A stretch of 64,000 bases of DNA from Bacillota bacterium (GCA_050949225.1 JBMNFI010000002.1:197942-261941); one strand, 5' to 3'. Counted from the stretch's first letter, positions 15,150 through 28,732 are shown. Notes: generated by a model not told the origin, from the sequence alone. Translations and numbers: made by a program.

Positions 15150-15440
15150 ATGTTTGTAGTGATTGCTTATGATGTCAATACGGAAACGCGAGAGGGACGA
15201 AAAAGACTGCGGTTAGTGAGCAAAGCTTGCCAAAATTATGGTCAGCGTGTCCAAAATTCTTTATTTGAGTGTTTGATTGACTATGGGACTTTTTTAATTT
15301 TAAAAAAAGAGTTGGAAAGTATTGTTGATGAGGATTTAGACAGCCTGAGATATTATTATTTGGGCAACAAATGGCAAAAGAGAGTGGAGCATTTTGGTGC
15401 CAAAGGTGGCTATGATCCTGAGGGAACAATTATTATATAG
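15150..15440 (+). CDS. cas2: CRISPR-associated endoribonuclease Cas2
   Basis: Starts MFVVIAYDVNTETREGRKRLRLVSKACQNYGQRVQNSLFEC. The track ORF begins at an upstream alternative start, but the conserved Cas2 N-terminus starts at ATG 15150. Confidence 0.9.
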   Translation: MFVVIAYDVNTETREGRKRLRLVSKACQNYGQRVQNSLFECLIDYGTFLILKKELESIVDEDLDSLRYYYLGNKWQKRVEHFGAKGGYDPEGTIII

Positions 15441-15584
15441 GTTTGCGAACCATAAGTGACCATTTTTGGTTATTTTGTTGATACGGCTGTTTTTAGTGGC
15501 CTTTTGTTTTAAAGAGTTGTTATTGTTTTGTCCGCCCCATGCGGTAGATGTGATGAATAATGCCTGTCCAGGGCATTTTCTAGA

Positions 15585-16086
15585 GTCGCACCCCGCAGGG
15601 GGTGCGTGGATTGAAATACAAGTATTACCAGAGCTGGAAAGAAAGATTTTGTCGCACCCCGCAGGGGGTGCGTGGATTGAAATCGGAAACGGCAAAGCGT
15701 ATGACCCCGCCAAAAGTGTCGCACCCCGCAGGGGGTGCGTGGATTGAAATTCTTAACTGTCTGCACAACATTAAATAATCCAACCGTCGCACCCCGCAGG
15801 GGGTGCGTGGATTGAAATTTTCTGATTTTGTGAAACTTTTCGGGATTGGTCGGTCGCACCCCGCAGGGGGTGCGTGGATTGAAATCCGTTATACCATTTA
15901 TTACGTAAGTTTTAACAACGTCGCACCCCGCAGGGGGTGCGTGGATTGAAATCATCGATTAGCTCTGTGACGATAAAATTAAGCTGTCGCACCCCGCAGG
16001 GGGTGCGTGGATTGAAATAAAATTGTTGATAAGCTCTCCGTCATAGAGGGTTGGTCGCACCCCGCAGGGGGTGCGTGGATTGAAAT
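15585..16086 (+). CRISPR. CRISPR array, 8 direct repeats of 33 bp (GTCGCACCCCGCAGGGGGTGCGTGGATTGAAAT) with 7 spacers of 33-35 bp; leader about 144 bp on the cas2 side
   Basis: Repeats begin at 15585, 15651, 15718, 15786, 15853, 15920, 15986 and 16054, all identical. The repeat is a typical type I-C repeat. The last repeat is not degenerate. Confidence 0.97.
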
Positions 16087-16996
16087 TTAGTGCAACAGCA
16101 GCAATCATCTCTACCTCGCCTGTTTTGACTGCGCCGGCTGTACTGAAATCAGGGAGCCAAGTCTGAACAGGGGCAACGCCCGCCATGCTGACTGCATGGA
16201 ATCCATCAACCCCCATCCGTGCAAAATAGATAGAGCTTGTGCCGTCCACACCTGACGTACCGATGATATCATTGTTACTTCCGGGTTTTGCGCCAAGATC
16301 AATCAGGGGAATACCGTTATACATGGAAACGTTGTTGCCCCATTCATCACGTGTTTCCTGATATTTACCATGAACTTTGGCGAGATACTCAAGAGTGGAA
16401 ATCATGTCACCATTGCCCATAATTGCAGAAGGCTTCCCATCAAGCTTTCTTAAAGCTTTATTTAAGGCGAGAAGGAAAGCACCGCCATTTGTTTCAATGT
16501 TCGCCGCGGTGGAAAGGTCAATGATATTCCCGGCATTAAATTCGGTTGCAGATCCCAATAACGCGGAATCTAAGCCATCAAAGGCATTTGCATTGACTGC
16601 CGAATCACCATTGATCACAGTGTCGCAAAACAGAGCCGCTGCGGCTTTAATTTTTTGTTCCATTTGTAATGTTACTTCACTTATGATACCCCCCATGTCC
16701 GCGATAACGCGGTCAATCTGGAAAGAACCGCCGAAGACCTTTAAGTCGACAGTATAGCGCTGTTTACCAACTTCCTGCGGATTATACTCAGCGTTTACCG
16801 CACGAAAAGCCGCGGTGGGTTGTGTAACCAGGCGAGTATAACCATAAGTTAGCGTTGCGCCGCCACCGGTGGGGGAAACACAATCATCAAAAACCATGTT
16901 ATCAAGCAAAAAGGAGCTTTTGCGGAATTCGTCAATCACTCCCATTTGTAAATCATCCTGTACGTTTTTCTTAGCTTCTTGTAATGTTACTGGCAT
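15959..16996 (-). CDS. phage major capsid protein; only 16087..16996 is capsid-derived, and the 3' end of the ORF reads through CRISPR repeat 8 and spacers (gene truncated or fused by the array)
   Basis: About 300-aa Gly/Ala-rich capsid-like product directly downstream of a scaffold gene. The last 43 codons (..FNPRTPCGVRPT..ISIHAPPAGCD..) are translations of the CRISPR repeat. Confidence 0.6.
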   Translation of the reverse strand: MPVTLQEAKKNVQDDLQMGVIDEFRKSSFLLDNMVFDDCVSPTGGGATLTYGYTRLVTQPTAAFRAVNAEYNPQEVGKQRYTVDLKVFGGSFQIDRVIADMGGIISEVTLQMEQKIKAAAALFCDTVINGDSAVNANAFDGLDSALLGSATEFNAGNIIDLSTAANIETNGGAFLLALNKALRKLDGKPSAIMGNGDMISTLEYLAKVHGKYQETRDEWGNNVSMYNGIPLIDLGAKPGSNNDIIGTSGVDGTSSIYFARMGVDGFHAVSMAGVAPVQTWLPDFSTAGAVKTGEVEMIAAVALNFNPRTPCGVRPTLYDGELINNFISIHAPPAGCDSLILSSQS

Positions 16997-17022: not shown

Positions 17023-17631
17023 TTAATCAGAGCTATTACCGGGGAATAATTTCGCTTTTATTGATTCCTCCAGCCCCTCCGGCTTAGGCGGCTCTGTTCT
17101 TTGTGCCGGATCTTTTTCCTCTCCCGGCTTCATTCCTTTTGGGACTGCCGGCGTAGGATTATCGAATTTGAAACAAAAGTTCTTTTCCTCGTCTTTAGTT
17201 AACGCTGTGATTTGGTCGCCGAGACCGACAATCTCGCCTTCCTTAACTGTGGCAGTTTCTAAAAACTCTGCCAGATAGACCTTGACTACTTTAGGGTCTC
17301 GTGCACCGGCTTTCAGCAAAGCAGATTCTACAATGGCATTTTTTTGTACTGTTAGTAATTCAGCTGCCATGCGTTCAGCTTCAGCTTTGTTGTCTTCTTG
17401 CAGCTTCTTGATTTGCGCCTCCAGCTCTTTATTGTCCGTGTTGGACTTTTGGAGTTCTTTCAGCTGCTTATCACGCTCTGAGACAGTACCTTTGAGGGTG
17501 TCCCTCTCGGTAATCATCTCATCGAGTCGCGACTTCGGCACAAAGCCTTCCAGTGCTTTCTTGTGTTCTGCAACCACCTTGTCGGCTGTTGCATCGTCGA
17601 TGTTCAAACTGGTCAAAAACTCTTTTTTCAT
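17023..17631 (-). CDS. phage scaffolding protein
   Basis: 202 aa, acidic and coiled-coil rich (KELEAQIKKLQEDNKAEAERMAAELLTVQ). Position is between the head-morphogenesis and capsid genes. Confidence 0.65.
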   Translation of the reverse strand: MKKEFLTSLNIDDATADKVVAEHKKALEGFVPKSRLDEMITERDTLKGTVSERDKQLKELQKSNTDNKELEAQIKKLQEDNKAEAERMAAELLTVQKNAIVESALLKAGARDPKVVKVYLAEFLETATVKEGEIVGLGDQITALTKDEEKNFCFKFDNPTPAVPKGMKPGEEKDPAQRTEPPKPEGLEESIKAKLFPGNSSD

Positions 17632-17815: not shown

Positions 17816-18043
17816 TTACGGCAACGCGTTAATTATGTCTTGATATTCAAAAGCCTTTTTTGTCATTTGTTGTTTTTCATCAAGGCAGCACCGCAACAAA
17901 TAATCAGATGCTTTTTCCTCTATATCAAGCAACTGTTTTTCGGAAAATTCATTATTAGCAGGACAATTAAAGCCTGCTTCTGCTAATAATTCTTGTTGTC
18001 TTTTACTAAAATCTACTTTCATTATCCTACTCTCCTTTTCCAT
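17816..18043 (-). CDS. small protein overlapping the 3' end of the MuF gene; candidate immunity protein for the MuF C-terminal domain
   Basis: 75-aa ORF overlapping the MuF stop by 17 nt. It is duplicated nearly identically at 25232..25459. Confidence 0.5.
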   Translation of the reverse strand: MEKESRIMKVDFSKRQQELLAEAGFNCPANNEFSEKQLLDIEEKASDYLLRCCLDEKQQMTKKAFEYQDIINALP

Positions 18044-19373
18044 ATTTTTTAATTCTACTTTTCCCGGTTTTCCATGTAGTAATCAGTGTTTTTGTTTCGG
18101 GGTTAACCGCTACTGTCGCCCTTTGCCCAATAAATTGAATAGAAGGCTTCCCTGAAGCATTAATACTAACCTCTGTTATGTGTAACGGGGTCTTTAAAGC
18201 CTCTATTGCGGCACTTACTTCAACAGCACGTTCCTCCCCTCGAGCTATCAAATGAGGGTTTATATGCTCTATAGTTAGTCCGTTCTGTGCTTCTACTCCT
18301 ATTATACCCTGCCAGTCGCTTTCTTTCAACACATAATTTTTATACCATTCTTGATAGGTCATATCGCCCTTAACATATTGTATCTCACCATCTGCACCTC
18401 TAGCTGCCCGCTCAAACTCTTTGCTGAACTCATCATCAAAGTGCGGACAAGTAGTGCCACGACAGCGTGTATGAAAGGGCGGCACAGTCACTCCGGGAGA
18501 ATAATCCGCCATCTTAACAACCTTGCCGTCCATCTCTTGACAAATGGTGCAAACGAGGTCGTCAAGCGTCTCGACAACCTCCACCGCCTCCACATCGAGC
18601 TCTTTATAAGCCTCCTTTTGGCCGGCAGCCACAAAGTACGTTGTTTCCGTATCTAAAAGGGCAGCGGCTCTGTGCTTTTTAACACCGAACTTTGCAGCAA
18701 AATCCTTAACACCAACATACGGCGTTTCACCAGTCATCAAGTTACGCATCAGCTGCGACTGCAAATCGCCAATAAGCGTCTGTTTATCGCGCCATATTCG
18801 ATCACTAAAATTCAGGCCATCAACCGCCCAAGGCGTTTTGATCAAGCGGTTAATCGCCGCCACATCAAGCGGCGAGATTGACCAGACTGCCCCAACACCT
18901 TTTTGAACATTAAAAGCCGTCCGATAGTATGTATCATCTAAAATCTTACGCAATACTTCATCTGTTAGGGCGTATTCCCTAGCATATAAAACCTCAACAG
19001 CCTGCTGCATCTCAATTTTGAGAGCCTCTAAGCGCGAGATATGAACACGAGCTGCAGCGTTTTCCAGCTGCTGAATCCATTTGCCATTGACTTCTGCCTC
19101 TTGTCCTCTGGCAATGTATTCTTCAAGCGTCCATTTAAATTCTTTTAATTCACCGGCAGAAAGTCTTTTATGCGCTTCAGCCAATGGAATTTTATTATTT
19201 TTAGCAAATTGCGTATACCAACGAGAGATTTTATCATCAACCATGTGCATCGCCCTTGTATACTCTTTATTTATCTCTTCCAGCGCAAGAGAAGCAGTTT
19301 GGTGGGCATCTCTGGCAACGTCCTCTGATCGTTTGGTCCAATAAGCCGCACTCCGCTTGAGTAACTCTGTCAT
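18027..19373 (-). CDS. phage head morphogenesis protein, SPP1 gp7 / Mu F family, with a C-terminal extension
   Basis: MuF-family motif ..CTICQEMDGKVV...PPFHTRCRGTTCP. Sits downstream of the portal gene. About 100 C-terminal residues extend beyond the MuF core. Confidence 0.8.
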   Translation of the reverse strand: MTELLKRSAAYWTKRSEDVARDAHQTASLALEEINKEYTRAMHMVDDKISRWYTQFAKNNKIPLAEAHKRLSAGELKEFKWTLEEYIARGQEAEVNGKWIQQLENAAARVHISRLEALKIEMQQAVEVLYAREYALTDEVLRKILDDTYYRTAFNVQKGVGAVWSISPLDVAAINRLIKTPWAVDGLNFSDRIWRDKQTLIGDLQSQLMRNLMTGETPYVGVKDFAAKFGVKKHRAAALLDTETTYFVAAGQKEAYKELDVEAVEVVETLDDLVCTICQEMDGKVVKMADYSPGVTVPPFHTRCRGTTCPHFDDEFSKEFERAARGADGEIQYVKGDMTYQEWYKNYVLKESDWQGIIGVEAQNGLTIEHINPHLIARGEERAVEVSAAIEALKTPLHITEVSINASGKPSIQFIGQRATVAVNPETKTLITTWKTGKSRIKKYGKGE

Positions 19374-22655: not shown

Positions 22656-23225
22656 TTACGCCGTTCTGCGCCACATGTAACATGTGATATATGGCGGTAA
22701 ATTGCCGCTGTTTCCTGAACCGGAGTAGCCCGTGTTGCCTGTTACTGGGTGGTCGTGTTTGGCATCAATTGCTATTCTGTCGGCATTACGTGCTGCTGTT
22801 TTTATTTCCACATTGGAATTCAAACTGATTCCGCCCTGCACATCATACGACAGTATCCCCGACGAATGGACAGGAAAACCTTGTGATCCACCTGTTAAGG
22901 TCCTGATATCGATCGTACCTGATAAGGCTTTTTCTGATGTTGTCAATGTTCCGTTATCATGTCTGTGGCTGTCTAGATACTTACTACCGCCTGTCTTTTG
23001 TGGGGTATTAAACTCTGCTTGTGTCGTATCCACCCCCACAGGCACTCTACCCGTTCCCCATGCGACCCATGTTCCACCCAATAGACTGCCTGGATTGGTT
23101 GCATTTACAGACATATATATTGCTCCTACGGGGTATGCTTTGTCTATATTAAAAGACTTACCATCGACATAGGCTTTGATTTTTTGCCAAAGATACAGTA
23201 ATCCATTATTGTCTAAAATTTTCAT
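22656..23225 (-). CDS. phage tail-fibre / receptor-binding-like protein (paralogue of 23239..23817)
   Basis: Start ATG 23225 preceded by AGGCGGTGG. Its N-terminus MKILDNNGLLYLWQKIKAYVD is shared with the upstream paralogue while the C-terminus is divergent and Gly/Thr/Ser-rich. Confidence 0.5.
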   Translation of the reverse strand: MKILDNNGLLYLWQKIKAYVDGKSFNIDKAYPVGAIYMSVNATNPGSLLGGTWVAWGTGRVPVGVDTTQAEFNTPQKTGGSKYLDSHRHDNGTLTTSEKALSGTIDIRTLTGGSQGFPVHSSGILSYDVQGGISLNSNVEIKTAARNADRIAIDAKHDHPVTGNTGYSGSGNSGNLPPYITCYMWRRTA

Positions 23226-23238
23226 TTTATGCCACCGC

Positions 23239-23817
23239 CTAACTGGCCATGATGGTATCGATTTCAGCATTTGTAATTGCCGCCAAATCATTAAACGTGA
23301 CATAGTCTGTCAAATCAACATCCGTTGAACCGATTTTCTCGTACGCTGATAAATCTGTCAGCCAAATATATTCATCGTAGCTGCCTCCGGAATTAGCCAC
23401 CAGATAAATTATGCCTTTCACTCCTTGTGTGGGCAAGGTCGCAACAATCTGAAAATCAATGCTTGTGATCCCCGACAAGGCGCTATTAATCGCTGTCTGC
23501 ACTTGGCTAGAGGTTTGATATCCCGCCCCATTTGTCAGCTGGTTGTTATTTGTTGGGATTTGATTAGCTGCCGCAATCCCAAGACCCGCTTTTGTTAAAG
23601 TGCCAGTGATTGTTGTGCCGTCAAGAGTTGGCTTGTTGACAATGGTTGTATAATCCGGCGCATTGATTAATCCAAGCAGTGCGTCGGTTAAGTCATTAGT
23701 TGACAGCCCCATATTTTCTACTTTATCAACTTTACTGTTAATTAAACTTTTGAGTTTTTGATTGTAGTATAATAGCCCGTTTTCATCCAAATATTTTTTA
23801 GGTGTCATGTTTTTCAC
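23239..23817 (-). CDS. phage tail-fibre / receptor-binding-like protein
   Basis: Conserved N-terminal KKYLDENGLLYYNQKLKSL followed by a Thr/Gly/Asn-rich variable region, as in siphovirus fibre proteins. Confidence 0.5.
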   Translation of the reverse strand: MKNMTPKKYLDENGLLYYNQKLKSLINSKVDKVENMGLSTNDLTDALLGLINAPDYTTIVNKPTLDGTTITGTLTKAGLGIAAANQIPTNNNQLTNGAGYQTSSQVQTAINSALSGITSIDFQIVATLPTQGVKGIIYLVANSGGSYDEYIWLTDLSAYEKIGSTDVDLTDYVTFNDLAAITNAEIDTIMAS

Positions 23818-24341: not shown

Positions 24342-24506
24342 ATGAAATTCCGGGAACTCGAAAAGATCATAAAAGCGGATGGCTGGGAGCATATTAAGAC
24401 AGTAGGATCATATCACCAGTACAAGCACCCAGCAAAACCCGGAAAGGTTACGATACCGTACTCAAACAAAGATTTAAAATTAAACACCATAAATAGAAAG
24501 GACTGA
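24342..24506 (+). CDS. hicA: type II toxin HicA (mRNA interferase), 54 aa; not in the ORF track because it is under 60 aa
   Basis: Translation MKFRELEKIIKADGWEHIKTVGSYHQYKHPAKPGKVTIPYSNKDLKLNTINRKD matches the HicA consensus (ELxKLLxxDGW..xGSHHxxKHPxxPG.VTVP). Sits immediately upstream of hicB. Confidence 0.75.
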   Translation: MKFRELEKIIKADGWEHIKTVGSYHQYKHPAKPGKVTIPYSNKDLKLNTINRKD

Positions 24507-24511
24507 ACAAT

Positions 24512-24913
24512 ATGAAACTTATATATCCTGCCTGCCTTTATCCTTGTGAAGAGGGTGGTTACACTGTGGTCTTTCCTGATCTGCCCGGTTGTGTAACTGA
24601 AGGGGATACTTTAGAAGATGCCCTTGATATGGCCGCTGATGCTGCCTGTGGTTGGATACTAGGAGAGACTGAGGATGACAATCCTTTCCCCTCTGCCTCA
24701 GATATCAAAGGTATAATAGCAGATGAATACAAAGAAGGATTTACTTCCCTTATCCCTCTGGACATGGAGAAATACGCTAAAAACCATAGCAATAAGTCTG
24801 TTAATAAAACTTTAACTATACCGGCTTGGTTAAATACTGCTGCAGAAAAAGAGAATGTCAACTTCTCTCAGGTACTGCAAGAGGCACTAGCCAAAAAGCT
24901 TGACGCTATGTAA
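24512..24913 (+). CDS. hicB: type II antitoxin HicB
   Basis: N-terminus LIYPACLYPCEEGGYTVVFPDLPGCVTEGDTLEDALDMA is the HicB/UPF0150 RNase-H-like fold signature. C-terminal RHH-like DNA-binding tail. Confidence 0.85.
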   Translation: MKLIYPACLYPCEEGGYTVVFPDLPGCVTEGDTLEDALDMAADAACGWILGETEDDNPFPSASDIKGIIADEYKEGFTSLIPLDMEKYAKNHSNKSVNKTLTIPAWLNTAAEKENVNFSQVLQEALAKKLDAM

Positions 24914-24922
24914 AACAATATA

Positions 24923-25022
24923 GTCGCACCCCGCAGGGGGTGCGTGGATTGAAATAATTTGATCGCTTGGGTTCGTCGGCGATTGAGCTGTCGCACCCTG
25001 CAGGGGGTGCGTGGATTGAAAT
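24923..25022 (+). CRISPR. CRISPR mini-array: 2 repeats and 1 spacer (34 bp). The second repeat is degenerate (C to T at position 10), as expected for a trailer-end repeat
   Basis: Repeat at 24923..24955 is identical to the main-array repeat. The repeat at 24990..25022 has one mismatch. Same orientation as the main array 8.8 kb upstream. Confidence 0.9.
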
Positions 25023-25510
25023 TTTACAGTGGTGTTTTTTTCTACCGTTAGTAATTCAGCTGCCATGCGTTCAGCTTCTTGATTTGTGCCTCCGGCTCTA
25101 TTGTCTTTTGGTTTAACGTCTCAAAATACCAAAACGGCGATTTTTTATATAAAAAAGGAGCGCCTACGATTATAGGTACTCTTAATGTTATATCTGGGTA
25201 TGAAAAACCACCTCAAATAATCAAGGTGGTTTTACGGCAGCGCGTTAATTATGTATTTATATTCAAAAGCCTTTTTTGTCATTTGTTGTTTTTCATCAAG
25301 ACAGCACCGCAGCAAATAATCAGATGCTTTTTCCTCTATATCAAGCAACTGCTTTTCGGAAAACTCATTATTAGCAGGACAATTAAAGCCCGCTTCTGCT
25401 AATAATTCTTGCTGTCTTTTACTAAAATCTACTTTCATTATCCTACTCTCCTTTTCCATATTTTTTAATTCTACTTTTTCCGGTTTTCCATGTAGTAATT
25501 AGTGTTTTTA
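25023..25510. repeat. partial direct duplicate (with internal deletions) of 17345..18110: internal scaffold fragment, junction and small ORF
   Basis: Long near-identical stretches shared with 17352-17382, 17408-17428 and 17690-18110, for example CTCTTAATGTTATATCTGGGTATGAAAAACCACCTCAAA..AATCAAGGTGGTTTTACGGCA. Confidence 0.8.
25232..25459 (-). CDS. second copy of the 75-aa small protein (candidate immunity protein), now orphaned
   Basis: 73 of 75 residues identical to 17816..18043. The upstream MuF gene is absent except for its last few dozen nucleotides. Confidence 0.5.
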   Translation of the reverse strand: MEKESRIMKVDFSKRQQELLAEAGFNCPANNEFSEKQLLDIEEKASDYLLRCCLDEKQQMTKKAFEYKYIINALP

Positions 25511-25562
25511 TTATGAAAATCTATGAAAAAAACCACCCTGTTGTGGGGTGGCTTAATCGCTA

Positions 25563-25808
25563 TTAGTTTTCAAAATAGGGGTTTATATCTACTTGAGATC
25601 TAATTTCTACGCCATAATGCGCGGCATTTAAGACATTAACTTCTTTGCCATTAAGCAAATAGGATTGGATCTGAGAGCCGTCAACATCTTCCAAGTAATC
25701 ATTTTTTATTAACGCAGGTATATTTCTTTCGAGAGCAGCGCACTGCCTCTTGAAAATATCTTCGTCAAAAACATTACAAATCACATATTCATAATTGTAT
25801 TTATACAT
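25563..25808 (-). CDS. small paralogous protein A (about 80 aa), candidate orphan immunity protein
   Basis: Paralogue of 26348..26587 and 27399..27641 (shared ..C.VFD.DIF..QC.ALE.NIP.L...DY..DVD.SQIQ.Y.LN.K.V.VLN....GVE..S.VD..PYFEN). Followed by a hairpin and T-run terminator at about 25527-25553. Confidence 0.5.
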   Translation of the reverse strand: MYKYNYEYVICNVFDEDIFKRQCAALERNIPALIKNDYLEDVDGSQIQSYLLNGKEVNVLNAAHYGVEIRSQVDINPYFEN

Positions 25809-25882
25809 TTGCTAGCCCTCCTGTTTATACTTTCGATAATTTTCGTGGATGATCTATAAAGTGGTTTTAGCTAATATTCGTT

Positions 25883-26279
25883 TTAAATGGCTAAATAATT
25901 CAATGCAAAATGATATCTATCTAGACGTTTCAAATCTTTTTTTAGTCACTTCTGATAATCTAGAAAGATCAGAATTATGTCTAAGGTCTGCAATTTTCAC
26001 TTTTTTTGCTAAAGGATTATTCTTTACTCTCTTCAGGTATTCAGTATAACCTTCTCTTTTGCACTTTGTAATAATTGTTACAGCTTCTATAATTTCTTGA
26101 CAAAAGCCAGCTTCAATAAGTTGTTCTTTTGTGTAATCGCTGTCTTATAAAACATCATGCGAAAGGGCAACGATCTTTTCTTTTTCTGTGTAGACCATTG
26201 CAGCGACTGTTAAAGGGTGGTTGATATACTCGTTTCCTCCCTTGTCTTTTTGACCTTTATGTGCTTTTTGAGCAATCAT
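25883..26279 (-). pseudogene. decayed small HD-domain protein resembling a RelA/SpoT-type (p)ppGpp hydrolase (small alarmone hydrolase-like); in-frame TAA plus a +1 frameshift
   Basis: Minus-strand translation MIAQKAHKGQKDKGGNEYINHPLTVAAMVYTEKEKIVALSHDVL*DSDYTKEQLIEAGFCQEIIEAVTIITKCKREGYTEYLKRVKNNPLAKKVKIADLRHN.. matches the RSH hydrolase N-terminus (H..GQ.R.sGEPYi.HPl.VA..l....D...i.AALLHDvvEDT....eei...FG..Va.lV.gvTK...). The TAA at 26145-26147 replaces the conserved Glu, and the frame shifts at the A7 run 25937-25943. Confidence 0.5.
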
Positions 26280-26347
26280 CAAAGCCTTCGCCAACAAGTT
26301 TACGCGCCTCGCTTTCGGTATTAATCCATAAAATGGTTTAATCGCTA

Positions 26348-26587
26348 TTAGTTTTCAAAATATGGTAACAGATCTACTTCGGAATTTACTTCTACACCAA
26401 ATATGGGCGTATTTAAAACTCTGACCTTTTTATCATTGAGCCAGTATATTTGAATTTGAGAGCTATCTACATCAACAGCATAGTCGCCCTTTTTTAATTC
26501 TGGTATATTCTTTTCAAGAGCAGTACACTGTTCCTGAAAAATATCAGAATCAAATACCTGACAAATAAAATATTCATGTTTGAACAT
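26348..26587 (-). CDS. small paralogous protein B (79 aa), candidate immunity protein for the upstream 154-aa domain
   Basis: Paralogue of 25563..25808 and 27399..27641. Starts 3 nt after the stop of 26590..27054. Confidence 0.5.
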   Translation of the reverse strand: MFKHEYFICQVFDSDIFQEQCTALEKNIPELKKGDYAVDVDSSQIQIYWLNDKKVRVLNTPIFGVEVNSEVDLLPYFEN

Positions 26588-26589
26588 TG

Positions 26590-27054
26590 TTAGCCCTCCA
26601 ATCCAAGTAATTTATTGATTTCTTTGTTTGACCGTGTAGAACTGTCGATTAAAGCCCTATAAAGATCATCGTCTGATTTATACAGGCTCCTGTATTTATC
26701 AACGTAAAAACTAAATTCCCGCAGAGGTGCATCTCTCACCAATCTTTCCAGTTCTTTCATGTCAATCATCATGTCCCTTGCTTGCTGCTTAAAGGTGTTT
26801 CTCAGTTCATGCGCCTGCATAGCCTGATCTTTTAGAGATAGTGTGCCGTCTAACATTGACGGAATTTTCTTATTGTGGGCTATGTACCAAGATCTTACTT
26901 CATAATTACCCAACATTCGATCAAATTTCAGCGAATAGTCCAAAGTATCAAGTCTATTTTGCTTACCGGCTTTTAACGCTTTCCATTTGTCAATTTCATT
27001 ATACTTTAAATATTGAAAATCCACAAGATTATTTGTATGCTTAATCCTAATCAA
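26590..27054 (-). CDS. orphan copy of the C-terminal domain found on the MuF-domain protein 27638..28732 (candidate orphan toxin-CT module)
   Basis: 154 aa, homologous over its length to the last ~150 residues of 27638..28732 (for example QAMQAHELRNTFKQQARDMMIDMKE vs QARQAYSLRNQYKEEARNLMADMAE, and SSTRSNKEINKLLG vs TATKSNEKVNKEVG). Confidence 0.5.
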   Translation of the reverse strand: MIRIKHTNNLVDFQYLKYNEIDKWKALKAGKQNRLDTLDYSLKFDRMLGNYEVRSWYIAHNKKIPSMLDGTLSLKDQAMQAHELRNTFKQQARDMMIDMKELERLVRDAPLREFSFYVDKYRSLYKSDDDLYRALIDSSTRSNKEINKLLGLEG

Positions 27055-27129
27055 AAAGACGATGAATATTTGTTAATCTATGTATTATAGTTCACTATAA
27101 TGCACTTTTTGTGCCTGCTTTTTTGACTG

Positions 27130-27240
27130 TTATCCAGTATCAGCCTTCAAAACTTCAATGCCCTTACCATATTCCGCCATAATTTTGTCAATGATATCCT
27201 TGTCATCAATGCCCAAACTTTCTAAAAATTCACGTTTCAT
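27130..27240 (-). pseudogene. fragment of a phage scaffold gene (first ~36 codons only)
   Basis: Minus-strand ORF MKREFLESLGIDDKDIIDKIMAEYGKGIEVLKADTG* parallels the scaffold N-terminus MKKEFLTSLNIDDATADKVVAEHKKALEGF of 17023..17631. Same position relative to a MuF plus small-ORF pair. Confidence 0.4.
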
Positions 27241-27398
27241 TTGATGTTTCCTTTCCTTCCGCTACGCTTTTTATCGGGGTTGCGCCCCGTGCGGCTGCAT
27301 CTTTTACGCTGTGCCCAGCAATATTTTTATATAAAAAAGACACTATGAACAATGTCAAAGTGTCTTAATTCATATTTAGTTGTTGCTATCAGTTGGCT

Positions 27399-27641
27399 TT
27401 AGTGCTTAATAAGCAGGTCGTCAAGTGGGTACGTGGATTTTACATACACCGCATCTACCAATGTGTCCATATAGATATCGATTTTTTCATTGTTTGCCGT
27501 AATATAAACAGCAATCAAAGAGCCATCCACATCTTCAAGCAGATCTTTCTTGACAGTAAAAGCCTTCTCAATTACTTTACATTGTGCATCAAAAACAGTT
27601 TTATCCACTTCTTTTGCGATAGTATAATCGTATTTCATCAT
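27399..27641 (-). CDS. small paralogous protein C (80 aa), candidate immunity protein for the C-terminal domain of 27638..28732
   Basis: ATGA overlap with the upstream MuF-domain gene. Paralogue of 25563..25808 and 26348..26587. Confidence 0.5.
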   Translation of the reverse strand: MMKYDYTIAKEVDKTVFDAQCKVIEKAFTVKKDLLEDVDGSLIAVYITANNEKIDIYMDTLVDAVYVKSTYPLDDLLIKH

Positions 27642-28732
27642 TTGTAACCCACCTCCTTGTTCACTTTTTCGTTAGACTTTGTCGCGGTCTTAATAATGTC
27701 TTTTAAGGCTTCTTCTCGTGTTAGCCCCTTACGCTCAATCTTATCATTAAGCAAATAATCAAAATCTGGAGCGGGGCTCTTGGCATCAAGCTTCGCCCTT
27801 TCTGCCATATCGGCCATCAGGTTGCGAGCCTCTTCTTTGTATTGGTTGCGCAAGGAATATGCTTGCCTTGCCTGTTTTTCTAGGCTCTGGGCGGTATCTA
27901 CTTGAGACGGAATAGACTTAATATGCTCATCATACCACTGTCTAACAGCTAGATTGCTTGCCTTGATATTGTTCGCCGCAAGTTCCTGATACTCCATTTT
28001 GGCGAATATATCACGGCCTGCCTTATCTAAAGCTATTATACCACTTTTAGCAGACAATTCCAAGTTCTGGACCCCGGCTCTTTCGCGGAAATAGTCACGA
28101 CTTAAGCCGGTTTGACTGATAAAATCTCTTTGCCTTGCTTGCCATTCTCGCACCTTGCCTTTAGCAAAGCTGTTGTCTAGTCCTGCTGCGTCATAAGCGC
28201 TGCCCTCACGCTTCCAGCGTCTTATTTGGCGCTCAATATAGCGTTGATGTTGAGTAGCATCATAAAGGCTCATCTTTTCGCCGTTGAAAGTGACTTCTCG
28301 ATTGTTGAGATCTCGCAAGCGGTCAGCATCATAGGCCTTTTCGTCTAGGCCTTCGACAAAGGGAAACCAGTCATGGCGACAATTTGCGCCTTTAAATCCT
28401 GTTACATCACCATAACCTATATCATCTAAAGATAGATAGCCATCTCTGCCTGATATACTCACCAGCTGCCCTTGCCATACTGCATGGCTTGGTCGAGCTG
28501 AATGATGAGCCGTCAATTCCATTAAGTCCGTATCCATCTCTTTGGCTCTGGCCAGCTGCAAATCTCCCGCTGTCTGGTTCACACCAGTCATAATTGCTCT
28601 TCTTGCAGCCACATCCAAGTAATCAGTATGTCCACCGGGATATGTGATAGATGCCAGCCCCTTAACAGTTAGGTCTCTAATCGCTCCTTTAACTGCCGTC
28701 CGGTAATCAAAAGCACCAGAGATGATTTGCAT
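27638..28732 (-). CDS. MuF (SPP1 gp7)-domain protein with a ~150-aa C-terminal extension; candidate MuF polymorphic toxin, detached from any portal or terminase genes
   Basis: MuF core motifs HHSARPSHAVWQGQLVSISG and KGANCRHDWFPF parallel the motifs in 18027..19373. The C-terminal ~150 aa are paralogous to 26590..27054. Confidence 0.55.
   Translation of the reverse strand: MQIISGAFDYRTAVKGAIRDLTVKGLASITYPGGHTDYLDVAARRAIMTGVNQTAGDLQLARAKEMDTDLMELTAHHSARPSHAVWQGQLVSISGRDGYLSLDDIGYGDVTGFKGANCRHDWFPFVEGLDEKAYDADRLRDLNNREVTFNGEKMSLYDATQHQRYIERQIRRWKREGSAYDAAGLDNSFAKGKVREWQARQRDFISQTGLSRDYFRERAGVQNLELSAKSGIIALDKAGRDIFAKMEYQELAANNIKASNLAVRQWYDEHIKSIPSQVDTAQSLEKQARQAYSLRNQYKEEARNLMADMAERAKLDAKSPAPDFDYLLNDKIERKGLTREEALKDIIKTATKSNEKVNKEVGYK

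Follow-up and report, generated by a model that had tools for sequence, protein, structure and literature searches.

We analysed a group of minus-strand genes around positions 25563-28732 of a 64,000-nucleotide (nt) stretch of DNA from a Bacillota bacterium (GCA_050949225.1 JBMNFI010000002.1:197942-261941; hereafter the window), in which a phage MuF-domain gene with a C-terminal extension (CT) is followed by an orphan copy of that extension and by small genes of putative immunity type. We propose, with a probability of about 0.65, that what remains here is a wrecked prophage head module that gained, and then partly lost, cassettes of MuF polymorphic toxins, and that it now constitutes a poly-immunity remnant. 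Since its truncated toxin open reading frames (ORFs) have no translation signals while its small genes have strong ones, the locus looks like a decayed prophage fragment with retained immunity genes and unlike a toxin locus that is active. The original prediction, which was made from the sequence alone, had described a main toxin-immunity pair followed by orphan modules: the orphan modules are indeed there, the intact main toxin is not. In array order, the parts are the following (SD, Shine-Dalgarno sequence; E, expect value).

27638..28732, minus strand: 5'-truncated gene of MuF2 type (Phage_min_cap2) with a helical CT, CT1; matches to PF06152 and PHROG 581
~28118-28732, minus strand: remnant of the MuF core, part of this 364-residue ORF
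~27641-28066, minus strand: CT1 region, residues ~223-364, part of the same ORF
27399..27641, minus strand: imm1, 80 residues, putative immunity protein for CT1; ATGA overlap, SD AAGGAGGTG
27130..27240, minus strand: N-terminal fragment (36 codons) of a scaffolding-protein gene; 55% identical (E 2e-8) to the start of the scaffold protein encoded at 17023-17631
26590..27054, minus strand: orphan 3' fragment of a MuF1-type gene with a helical CT, CT2, 154 residues, TTG start; found by BLASTP to CT1
26348..26587, minus strand: imm2, 79-residue paralogue of imm1 (35% identity); SD GGAGGG
25917..26297, minus strand: pseudogene assigned to the Aph1-type (p)ppApp hydrolases (HD_4), from PDB 7smg and Pfam HD_4
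25563..25808, minus strand: imm3, 81-residue paralogue without a CT upstream, 62% identity to imm2; SD AGGAGGG
25443..25505, minus strand: vestige of a second CT type (CT-B), its last 21 codons; DNA alignment to 18025-18090 and tblastn
25232..25438, minus strand: immB2, second copy of a 68-residue immunity-like gene, 97% identity to immB1
25023..25100, minus strand: piece from the interior of a scaffolding-protein gene, 90% identical to 17325-17428 at the DNA level; adjoins the last CRISPR repeat

All ORFs of the predicted array were found where they had been placed; immB2 and the CT-B vestige lie just outside its predicted extent and belong to the array all the same. Immunity-type genes (four, plus the aph1 pseudogene) outnumber CT domains (two, plus the vestige). 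The sequence similarities within the window, between CT1 and CT2 and among the small proteins, are far beyond chance. The region is AT-rich, with a G+C content of 34-38% vs 42-44% in the flanks, and the fragment that bears the cassettes (3.8 kb) is wedged between an array of clustered regularly interspaced short palindromic repeats (CRISPR) and the host hcp gene.

The 364-residue protein was correctly described as a MuF core followed by an extension, in an ORF overlapping that of an 80-residue protein. Pfam PF06152 matches residues 1-205 (E 1.4e-70), so that residues 206-364, about 160 residues, lie beyond the domain, and the stop codon overlaps the imm1 start in the sequence ATGA. The match covers profile positions 152-365 of 366 only; because it begins at position 152, the protein is truncated at its N-terminus, with ~150 residues missing. 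A stop codon stands two codons 5' of the ATG, no SD precedes it, and the 265 nt upstream of 28732 are non-coding and reach the terminator of hcp (prismane). No portal gene was found upstream of this MuF ORF, the host hcp gene being there instead. What had been taken for the main toxin gene is therefore a 5'-truncated remnant. A strong sigma-70-like sequence (TTGGAA-17-TATAAT with an extended -10 TG, 10/12, a consensus match only) lies within the truncated ORF at 28035-28063 on the minus strand; it coincides with the codons for '...LELSAKSGII', the junction that immediately precedes CT1 and imm1.

The 154-residue ORF aligns only to residues 260-362 of the 364-residue protein (38% identity, BLASTP E 5e-21), which bears out its description as a paralogue of the extension alone, and its N-terminal part resembles the pre-CT region of a 528-residue MuF1 protein at locus L003. 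It starts with TTG without an SD, and imm2 begins 2 nt after it, not 3 as had been counted. Scaffold-gene fragments separate the cassettes, and the one at 27130..27240 marks an apparent recombination joint. The next gene, reported as a decayed HD gene, contains one in-frame TAA (26145-26147) between 26297 and 25917, directly after HDVL of the HD motif; the motif is present as ...SHDVL, and TAA replaces the Glu of HDxxED. With the TAA read as Glu, residues 1-121 of 126 match the '(p)ppApp hydrolase' of PDB 7smg (E 1.6e-30), and with the stop read through Pfam HD_4 matches at 4.6e-7. The same 50-residue truncated aph1 ORF is called in all other assemblies. Aph1 was experimentally shown to be an enzymatic immunity protein of MuF-Apk2 toxins (PMC10083569). 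The decay stands, and an identity can be added to it: by homology, the gene is a pseudogene of an Aph1-type (p)ppApp hydrolase, an immunity enzyme type known from MuF toxins, and its presence here appears not to be incidental. No RelA_SpoT domain was found in any ORF scanned between 22 and 29 kb, and the array does not show a MuF-Apk2 (RelA_SpoT-like) toxin and a Tis1-like gene next to the Aph1-type gene.

The small genes present the opposite picture, their full-length frames being kept in all four cases while the large genes around them are broken. The three proteins of about 80 residues are paralogous, as had been claimed, with pairwise identities of 35-62% and 19 invariant columns; at this divergence they are not recent duplicates. 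Each of imm1-3 has a consensus SD, which both the truncated MuF ORF and the 154-residue ORF lack, and immB2 has the sequence GGAGAG ahead of its probable start codon (ATG at 25438). A terminator-like hairpin lies downstream of imm3 (25530-25554), and others follow imm1 and the immB genes. The proteins are acidic (isoelectric point, pI, of 4.6 for imm1 and 4.4 for imm2), and small proteins (pI 4.4-5.1) and CT domains (pI 8.8-9.5) are complementary in charge. In a Bacillota metagenome-assembled genome, imm1-3 are the hypothetical proteins ACOX05_05760/70/80.

A second putative toxin type is also present in the array. In intact form it is represented elsewhere in the window by two genes.

18027..19373, minus strand: intact 448-residue MuF1 protein (PF04233, E 4.2e-12) with a ~90-residue basic CT of the second type
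17816..18022, minus strand: immB1, 68-residue immunity-like gene after the 448-residue MuF, recognised by homology to a small gene of locus L051

The 448-residue MuF1 gene lies directly after a portal gene inside an 8.8-kb phage fragment. Its CT is 39% identical to an orphan CT of L051 (E 4e-13), which itself has a weak, sub-threshold match to DUF4258, and the partner gene of that orphan is homologous to the 68-residue gene (E 5e-8). The vestige at 25443..25505 is 100% identical, over 21 residues, to the C-terminus of the 448-residue protein (tblastn). Homology of the array to the 8.8-kb fragment starts after the imm3 terminator and comprises these 21 codons of MuF1, the copy of the 68-residue gene, a terminator and an internally deleted scaffold-gene fragment. 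The 448-residue MuF and its 68-residue partner form a second, apparently intact, putative MuF toxin/immunity pair; the capsid gene of the same fragment is truncated.

So much decay is also what one would see if the array were inert recombination debris, devoid of present function, in which the small genes are intact only because the decay is recent. The truncated MuF gene, CT2 without start signals, the nonsense codon of aph1, the scaffold fragments and the CT-B vestige all agree with this, and the 97% identity of immB2 to immB1 suggests a recent event. Moreover, the locus does not differ between assemblies, several of which are independent metagenome assemblies, and so gives no measurable signal of purifying selection. 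We nevertheless find this explanation rather doubtful: it has to account for four full-length small genes, three of them with consensus SDs, where every surrounding large gene is broken, for the terminator-like hairpins kept after imm3 and the immB genes, and for paralogues that diverged long enough ago to share only 35-62% identity, yet none of which has decayed.

We then characterised the helical CT as a protein family. A word-indexed search with CT1 alone returned 5 matches only; the family was then sought by a full HMMER scan, for which a profile of 7 sequences was used. At least 1405 representatives of 50%-identity clusters match this profile at E<=1e-3, and 232 do so at E<=1e-30; a later word-index profile search yielded short proteins only and no new carrier types. 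Among the 147 representatives listed, the CT ends a median of 1 residue from the C-terminus, with more than 15 residues after it in 2 only. The 102 representatives of at least 230 residues carry the CT on PF04233 (38), PF06152 (34) or VG15 (4) proteins, the rest being unassigned; a few carriers have sub-threshold metallopeptidase matches. Invariant or near-invariant positions are R264, W266, Y267, R295, N296, R303, M306, D308, K331, K335 and D345 (numbering of the 364-residue protein), and the alignment holds no invariant His, Cys or Glu. The AlphaFold2 model is all-helical (predicted local distance difference test, pLDDT, 89; predicted template modelling score, pTM, 0.82). The CT has no match in Pfam, NCBIfam, PADLOC or a PDB sequence search; its fold has no match in PDB or BFVD and resembles no known toxin, and none of the papers in the library searched describes it. 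It falls in Jamet's class of 'extension with unknown domain', with no recognised toxin family matched. The imm1-3 profile finds 75 proteins of ~76-117 residues, none with a Pfam domain. The AlphaFold2 model of imm1 (pLDDT 95) has a beta-alpha-beta4 fold; the family is without match in Pfam, NCBIfam and PADLOC, and the PDB fold search gave a generic fold match only. The claim that neither the extension nor the small proteins belong to a family that can be named thus withstood these searches, and the structure prediction suggested as a check gave the same answer. As far as homology searches can tell, helical CT and ~80-residue protein are both widespread, unnamed families. An ADP-ribosyltransferase-like motif read by eye in one carrier (P0096) was dropped, as Pfam did not confirm it.

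Comparative support for the cassette reading comes from the loci of relatives, which were located through the CT alone and then scanned with purpose-built hidden Markov models. A gene of the small-protein family stands directly downstream of the CT in 30 of 32 IMG/VR contigs, often with a 4-nt overlap, and in all 13 bacterial genome loci (13/13); it also adjoins the CT in L002-L005. The survey of homologues that had been proposed as a check therefore shows conserved adjacency. In intact phages the gene order is terminase, portal, MuF-CT, small gene, scaffold, capsid, and the MuF gene comes right after the portal gene in L002, L003-L005 and L010, as it does for the MuF at 18027-19373 of the window. 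In the two exceptions, L034 and L035, a divergent CT is followed, again with a 4-nt overlap, by a different small ORF of 95-96 residues. The divergent CTs form a subclade ending in ...SSTTTN.xYDxKxG, and their partner ORFs, at 4321-4611 of L034 and 4327-4614 of L035, suggest a second partner family. Across loci, the identities of CT and small protein co-vary (r=0.91).

In addition, these loci show the cassette structure typical of polymorphic toxins. At L016 and L051, three successive cassettes open with one shared constant region of ~60 residues and a '...SGII/NSII' junction; beyond it they run into three different C-terminal domains, each with its own small gene after it. The cassettes (L016 2900-4600, L051 4100-8600) are separated by a repeated intergenic element with the translation ...APCTLRGAFSVP.... 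Two genes of L048 likewise have a common N-terminal region and different ends. At L045, the CT/small-gene pair lies downstream of a tail-fibre gene, beside a 740-residue protein with a PBECR3 nuclease domain and near a Gln_amidase (papain-fold toxin) cassette with duplicated partner genes. Short orphan CTs followed by a small gene occur at L043 and L052; orphan CT/immunity cassettes are found at L043, L049, L051 and L052, and in the window as CT2-imm2, imm3 alone and the CT-B vestige with immB2. Phages of C. tetani (Clostridium phage phiCT9441A and relatives) have a 71-residue orphan CT fragment, annotated 'Rhs family protein' (L001 4130-4345), between tail-region genes and the holin/endolysin cassette; no gene of the small-protein family was found after it. 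The closest deposited MuF2 core, that of the Faecalibacterium phage FP_Lugh (45% identity), ends in an HExxH extension and is accompanied by a small ORF that is also different, and the helical CT was not found in this protein. Among 50,697 phage records, the MuF2 core is present in 252 and the CT in 8, and none of the 12 MuF2-core records listed is among those 8. MT837839 is the sole CT record seen with a MuF fusion, of MuF1 type; the C. tetani copy inspected is an orphan. The same CT therefore occurs on different carriers (PF04233, PF06152, VG15 and proteins without a MuF domain), and the same carrier or constant region occurs with different CTs (the FP_Lugh MuF2 core, L016/L051, L048). This mixing of carriers and CTs, together with the adjacency and with orphans among known toxin cassettes, upholds the prediction of a polymorphic-toxin-style cassette array on a MuF scaffold.

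From these observations we infer the following course of events. In intact relatives, a MuF minor-head protein encoded after the portal gene ends in a basic, all-helical CT of ~115 residues, and an acidic protein of ~80 residues would be made from the overlapping downstream gene. Proteins of this kind, as established for SPP1 gp7, attach to the portal and, inside the capsid, to the DNA of the phage (summarised in PMC10083569). The CT would be a growth-inhibiting effector; its conserved Arg, Asn, Asp and Lys on one long helix and its pI of ~9 make nucleic acid or a nucleotide its probable target. It is possible that it is delivered by the virion and has a new activity as well as a new fold. The small protein would be its immunity protein and would neutralise it by direct binding. 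Successive recombination with related phages, between the MuF and the scaffold genes, would have pushed older cassettes downstream, where the toxin frames lost their 5' parts and ribosome-binding sites and the four small immunity-type genes kept their frames. At present, the locus is most likely a poly-immunity remnant that could protect against MuF toxins of related phages; otherwise it would have no role.

Several of our results weigh against this scheme. Neither toxin ORF in the window looks translatable. The identity of the CT also tracks that of the N-terminal region across loci (r=0.85), which indicates mostly vertical inheritance and not frequent swapping of cassettes. In 7 of 52 long proteins, the MuF domain and the CT are separated by an HExxH metallopeptidase-like domain; a small gene comes after such proteins in one case only, so that the CT is not always 'the' effector. 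Finally, three CT-like copies stand in tandem in the 680-residue actinobacterial protein P0222, an unusual arrangement for a catalytic toxin. P0222 also has a weakly GNAT-like N-terminal region before its CT-like domains, an architecture unlike that of the phage MuF carriers.

The same observations, save the first, favour a non-toxic pair, in which the CT would serve for docking to the portal, DNA or capsid, or for ejection, the small protein would be its assembly chaperone or plug, and the orphans would be debris of head-module recombination. As many as 72 of the 102 carriers are MuF proteins, the CT keeps to the extreme C-terminus even after HExxH, it has no invariant His, Cys or Glu and a fold unlike known toxins, PHROG 581, 'minor head protein', matches the 364-residue protein over a span that includes part of the CT, and scaffold fragments lie between the cassettes in the window. 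A purely structural pair would, however, hardly be expected outside head modules among PBECR3 and Gln_amidase cassettes, with the CT near the lysis genes of C. tetani phages, nor would it explain the constant regions with different CTs at L016 and L051, a signature of polymorphic toxins. Most deposited phages with the same MuF2 core do without the CT (252 vs 8 records), the divergent CT subclade has a different small partner, and in the window imm3, a third small gene that stands alone, has been kept along with a gene of the Aph1 immunity type. On balance we judge a non-toxic pair unlikely.

Overlapping, translationally coupled genes with a basic first and an acidic second product are also compatible with a type II toxin-antitoxin system that acts in the producing cell, for addiction or abortive infection, the MuF fusion being incidental and virion delivery absent. 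Stand-alone short CTs are common (45 of the 147 listed representatives have fewer than 230 residues), and the neighbouring phage fragment holds a HicAB pair. However, the toxin gene comes first, most full-length versions have the CT joined to a virion protein, the small protein showed neither a DNA-binding nor an antitoxin-type domain, and many of the short versions are 3' fragments of full-length MuF genes that still include pre-CT sequence. A toxin-antitoxin system is thus very improbable, and a MuF polymorphic-toxin origin of the cassettes remains our preferred reading.

The setting of the remnant concerns the CRISPR locus beside it, one element of which completes the list of features.

24923..25022, plus strand: CRISPR repeats R9 (perfect) and R10 (1 mismatch) with one spacer, type I-C

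After a type I-C cas operon (cas3 to cas2, ~7.8-15.4 kb) come a leader and then 8 perfect repeats (15585-16086). Between the end of R8 (16086) and the start of R9 (24923) lie 8,836 bp of phage DNA (16087-24922) with complete repeats on both sides, in the order capsid gene, scaffold, immB1, 448-residue MuF, portal, large terminase (TerL), small terminase (TerS), two tail-fibre-like genes, small ORFs and HicAB. The array then resumes with R9, a single spacer and R10, and the cassette-bearing fragment starts at base 25023, the first after R10. Three phage/array junctions (R8/capsid gene, hicB-end/R9 and R10/scaffold fragment) thus fall exactly at repeat borders. The HicA/HicB toxin-antitoxin pair (24342-24913, plus strand) ends the 8.8-kb fragment 10 nt before repeat 9. 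The two tail-fibre-like genes (22656-23817, minus strand), one with a Gp10_C baseplate domain, occupy an unusual position directly upstream of the small terminase gene. The capsid gene (15959-16996) is without its last ~16 codons, homologues ending in ...AAVALKATKAAAVFRNIKVV, and the listed capsid ORF continues into translated CRISPR repeats. Likewise, several of the ORFs listed in 15.3-16.0 kb (15336-15955) and at 24887-25066 are repeat translations (recurrent peptides SIHAPPAGCD / STHPLRGAT / NPRTPCGVR). The same layout is found in several independent assemblies; since the joins recur there and the repeat is only 33 nt long, we judged mis-assembly unlikely.

These borders raise the idea that the phage remnants, including the poly-immunity array, were captured by the CRISPR locus itself, through integration of a giant spacer by Cas1-Cas2 or through spacer-protospacer recombination. 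If so, the array would be a sink that also keeps phage-derived toxin-immunity genes. Capture of this kind is improbable on present evidence. The 8836-nt length of the fragment does not fit spacers of 33-35 nt, and no normal spacer of the array matches the window. The TTC protospacer-adjacent motif (PAM) was not found upstream of the last 33-36 nt, the sole testable putative spacer end, and in the homologous copy a TTC stands 2 nt away from the R10 junction; the closest capsid relatives, only ~60% identical, are too distant for PAM inference. IMG/VR contains neither the exact sequence of the capsid junction nor the CRISPR repeat, the metagenome collection lacks spacer 7, and a cas2 look-up found no strain without the insertion. 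Spacer-mediated recombination between phages and CRISPR loci was reportedly described by Varble et al. 2019; as in that process, phage DNA is joined here to repeats exactly at the repeat borders. Unlike it, fragments of 8.8 and 3.8 kb remain in the chromosome, and there is no TTC PAM at the testable end. The junctions may have arisen by Cas1-Cas2 integration, by spacer-protospacer recombination or by another rearrangement.

Whatever their origin, the cassettes belong to a kind of element that is already known, the MuF polymorphic toxins of temperate phages (Jamet et al. 2017, PMC5576092), which are abundant in gut Firmicutes phages. The MuF superfamily comprises in that scheme the domains PF04233, PF06152 (MuF2), MuF3 and MuF4 (PMC5576092). 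Apk2, with a Tis1-like protein and Aph1 (PMC10083569), and Bxa, with two immunity proteins (PMC11699363), are the only characterised MuF toxins (PMC11699363). That MuF toxins are injected together with the DNA of the phage has so far only been proposed (PMC10083569, PMC5576092), and poly-immunity in MuF clusters only speculated on (PMC11699363). Our analysis defines a putative third MuF effector/partner pair, very widespread and with confident structure models and invariant residues, and the window offers a concrete case of a poly-immunity remnant linked to MuF. Should the small proteins protect against phage-injected toxins, such remnants would amount to a phage-derived defence against superinfection, here beside CRISPR-Cas.

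Like MuF polymorphic toxins, the proteins described here combine an N-terminal domain of the MuF superfamily with a variable extension and a small ORF (<150 residues) directly downstream, occupy the interval between portal and scaffold in intact relatives, and have a gene for an Aph1-type hydrolase in the cluster. They differ in that the CT, all-helical and unnamed, could not be linked to a recognised toxin family and the small protein is unnamed too, and in that the MuF gene is truncated, the portal gene absent and the immunity-type genes more numerous than the CTs. CdiA and Rhs loci provide a second comparison. They too have orphan CT/immunity arrays downstream and 5'-truncated toxin fragments that keep the constant region without translation starts; an intact immunity gene follows each orphan, and the arrays are thought to arise by recombinational displacement of old cassettes. 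Here, a head protein of a phage is the carrier in place of a secreted filament or type VI secretion/Rhs shell, the joints carry pieces of neighbouring scaffold genes, and no full-length main toxin with the helical CT heads the array. The short MuF proteins SPP1 gp7 and phage Mu GpF share the homologous core and the position after the portal gene that is seen in relatives. The helical CT and its small partner are therefore best described as a putative new CT family and a putative new immunity family within the known MuF polymorphic-toxin kind, kept here as a decayed, immunity-rich remnant.

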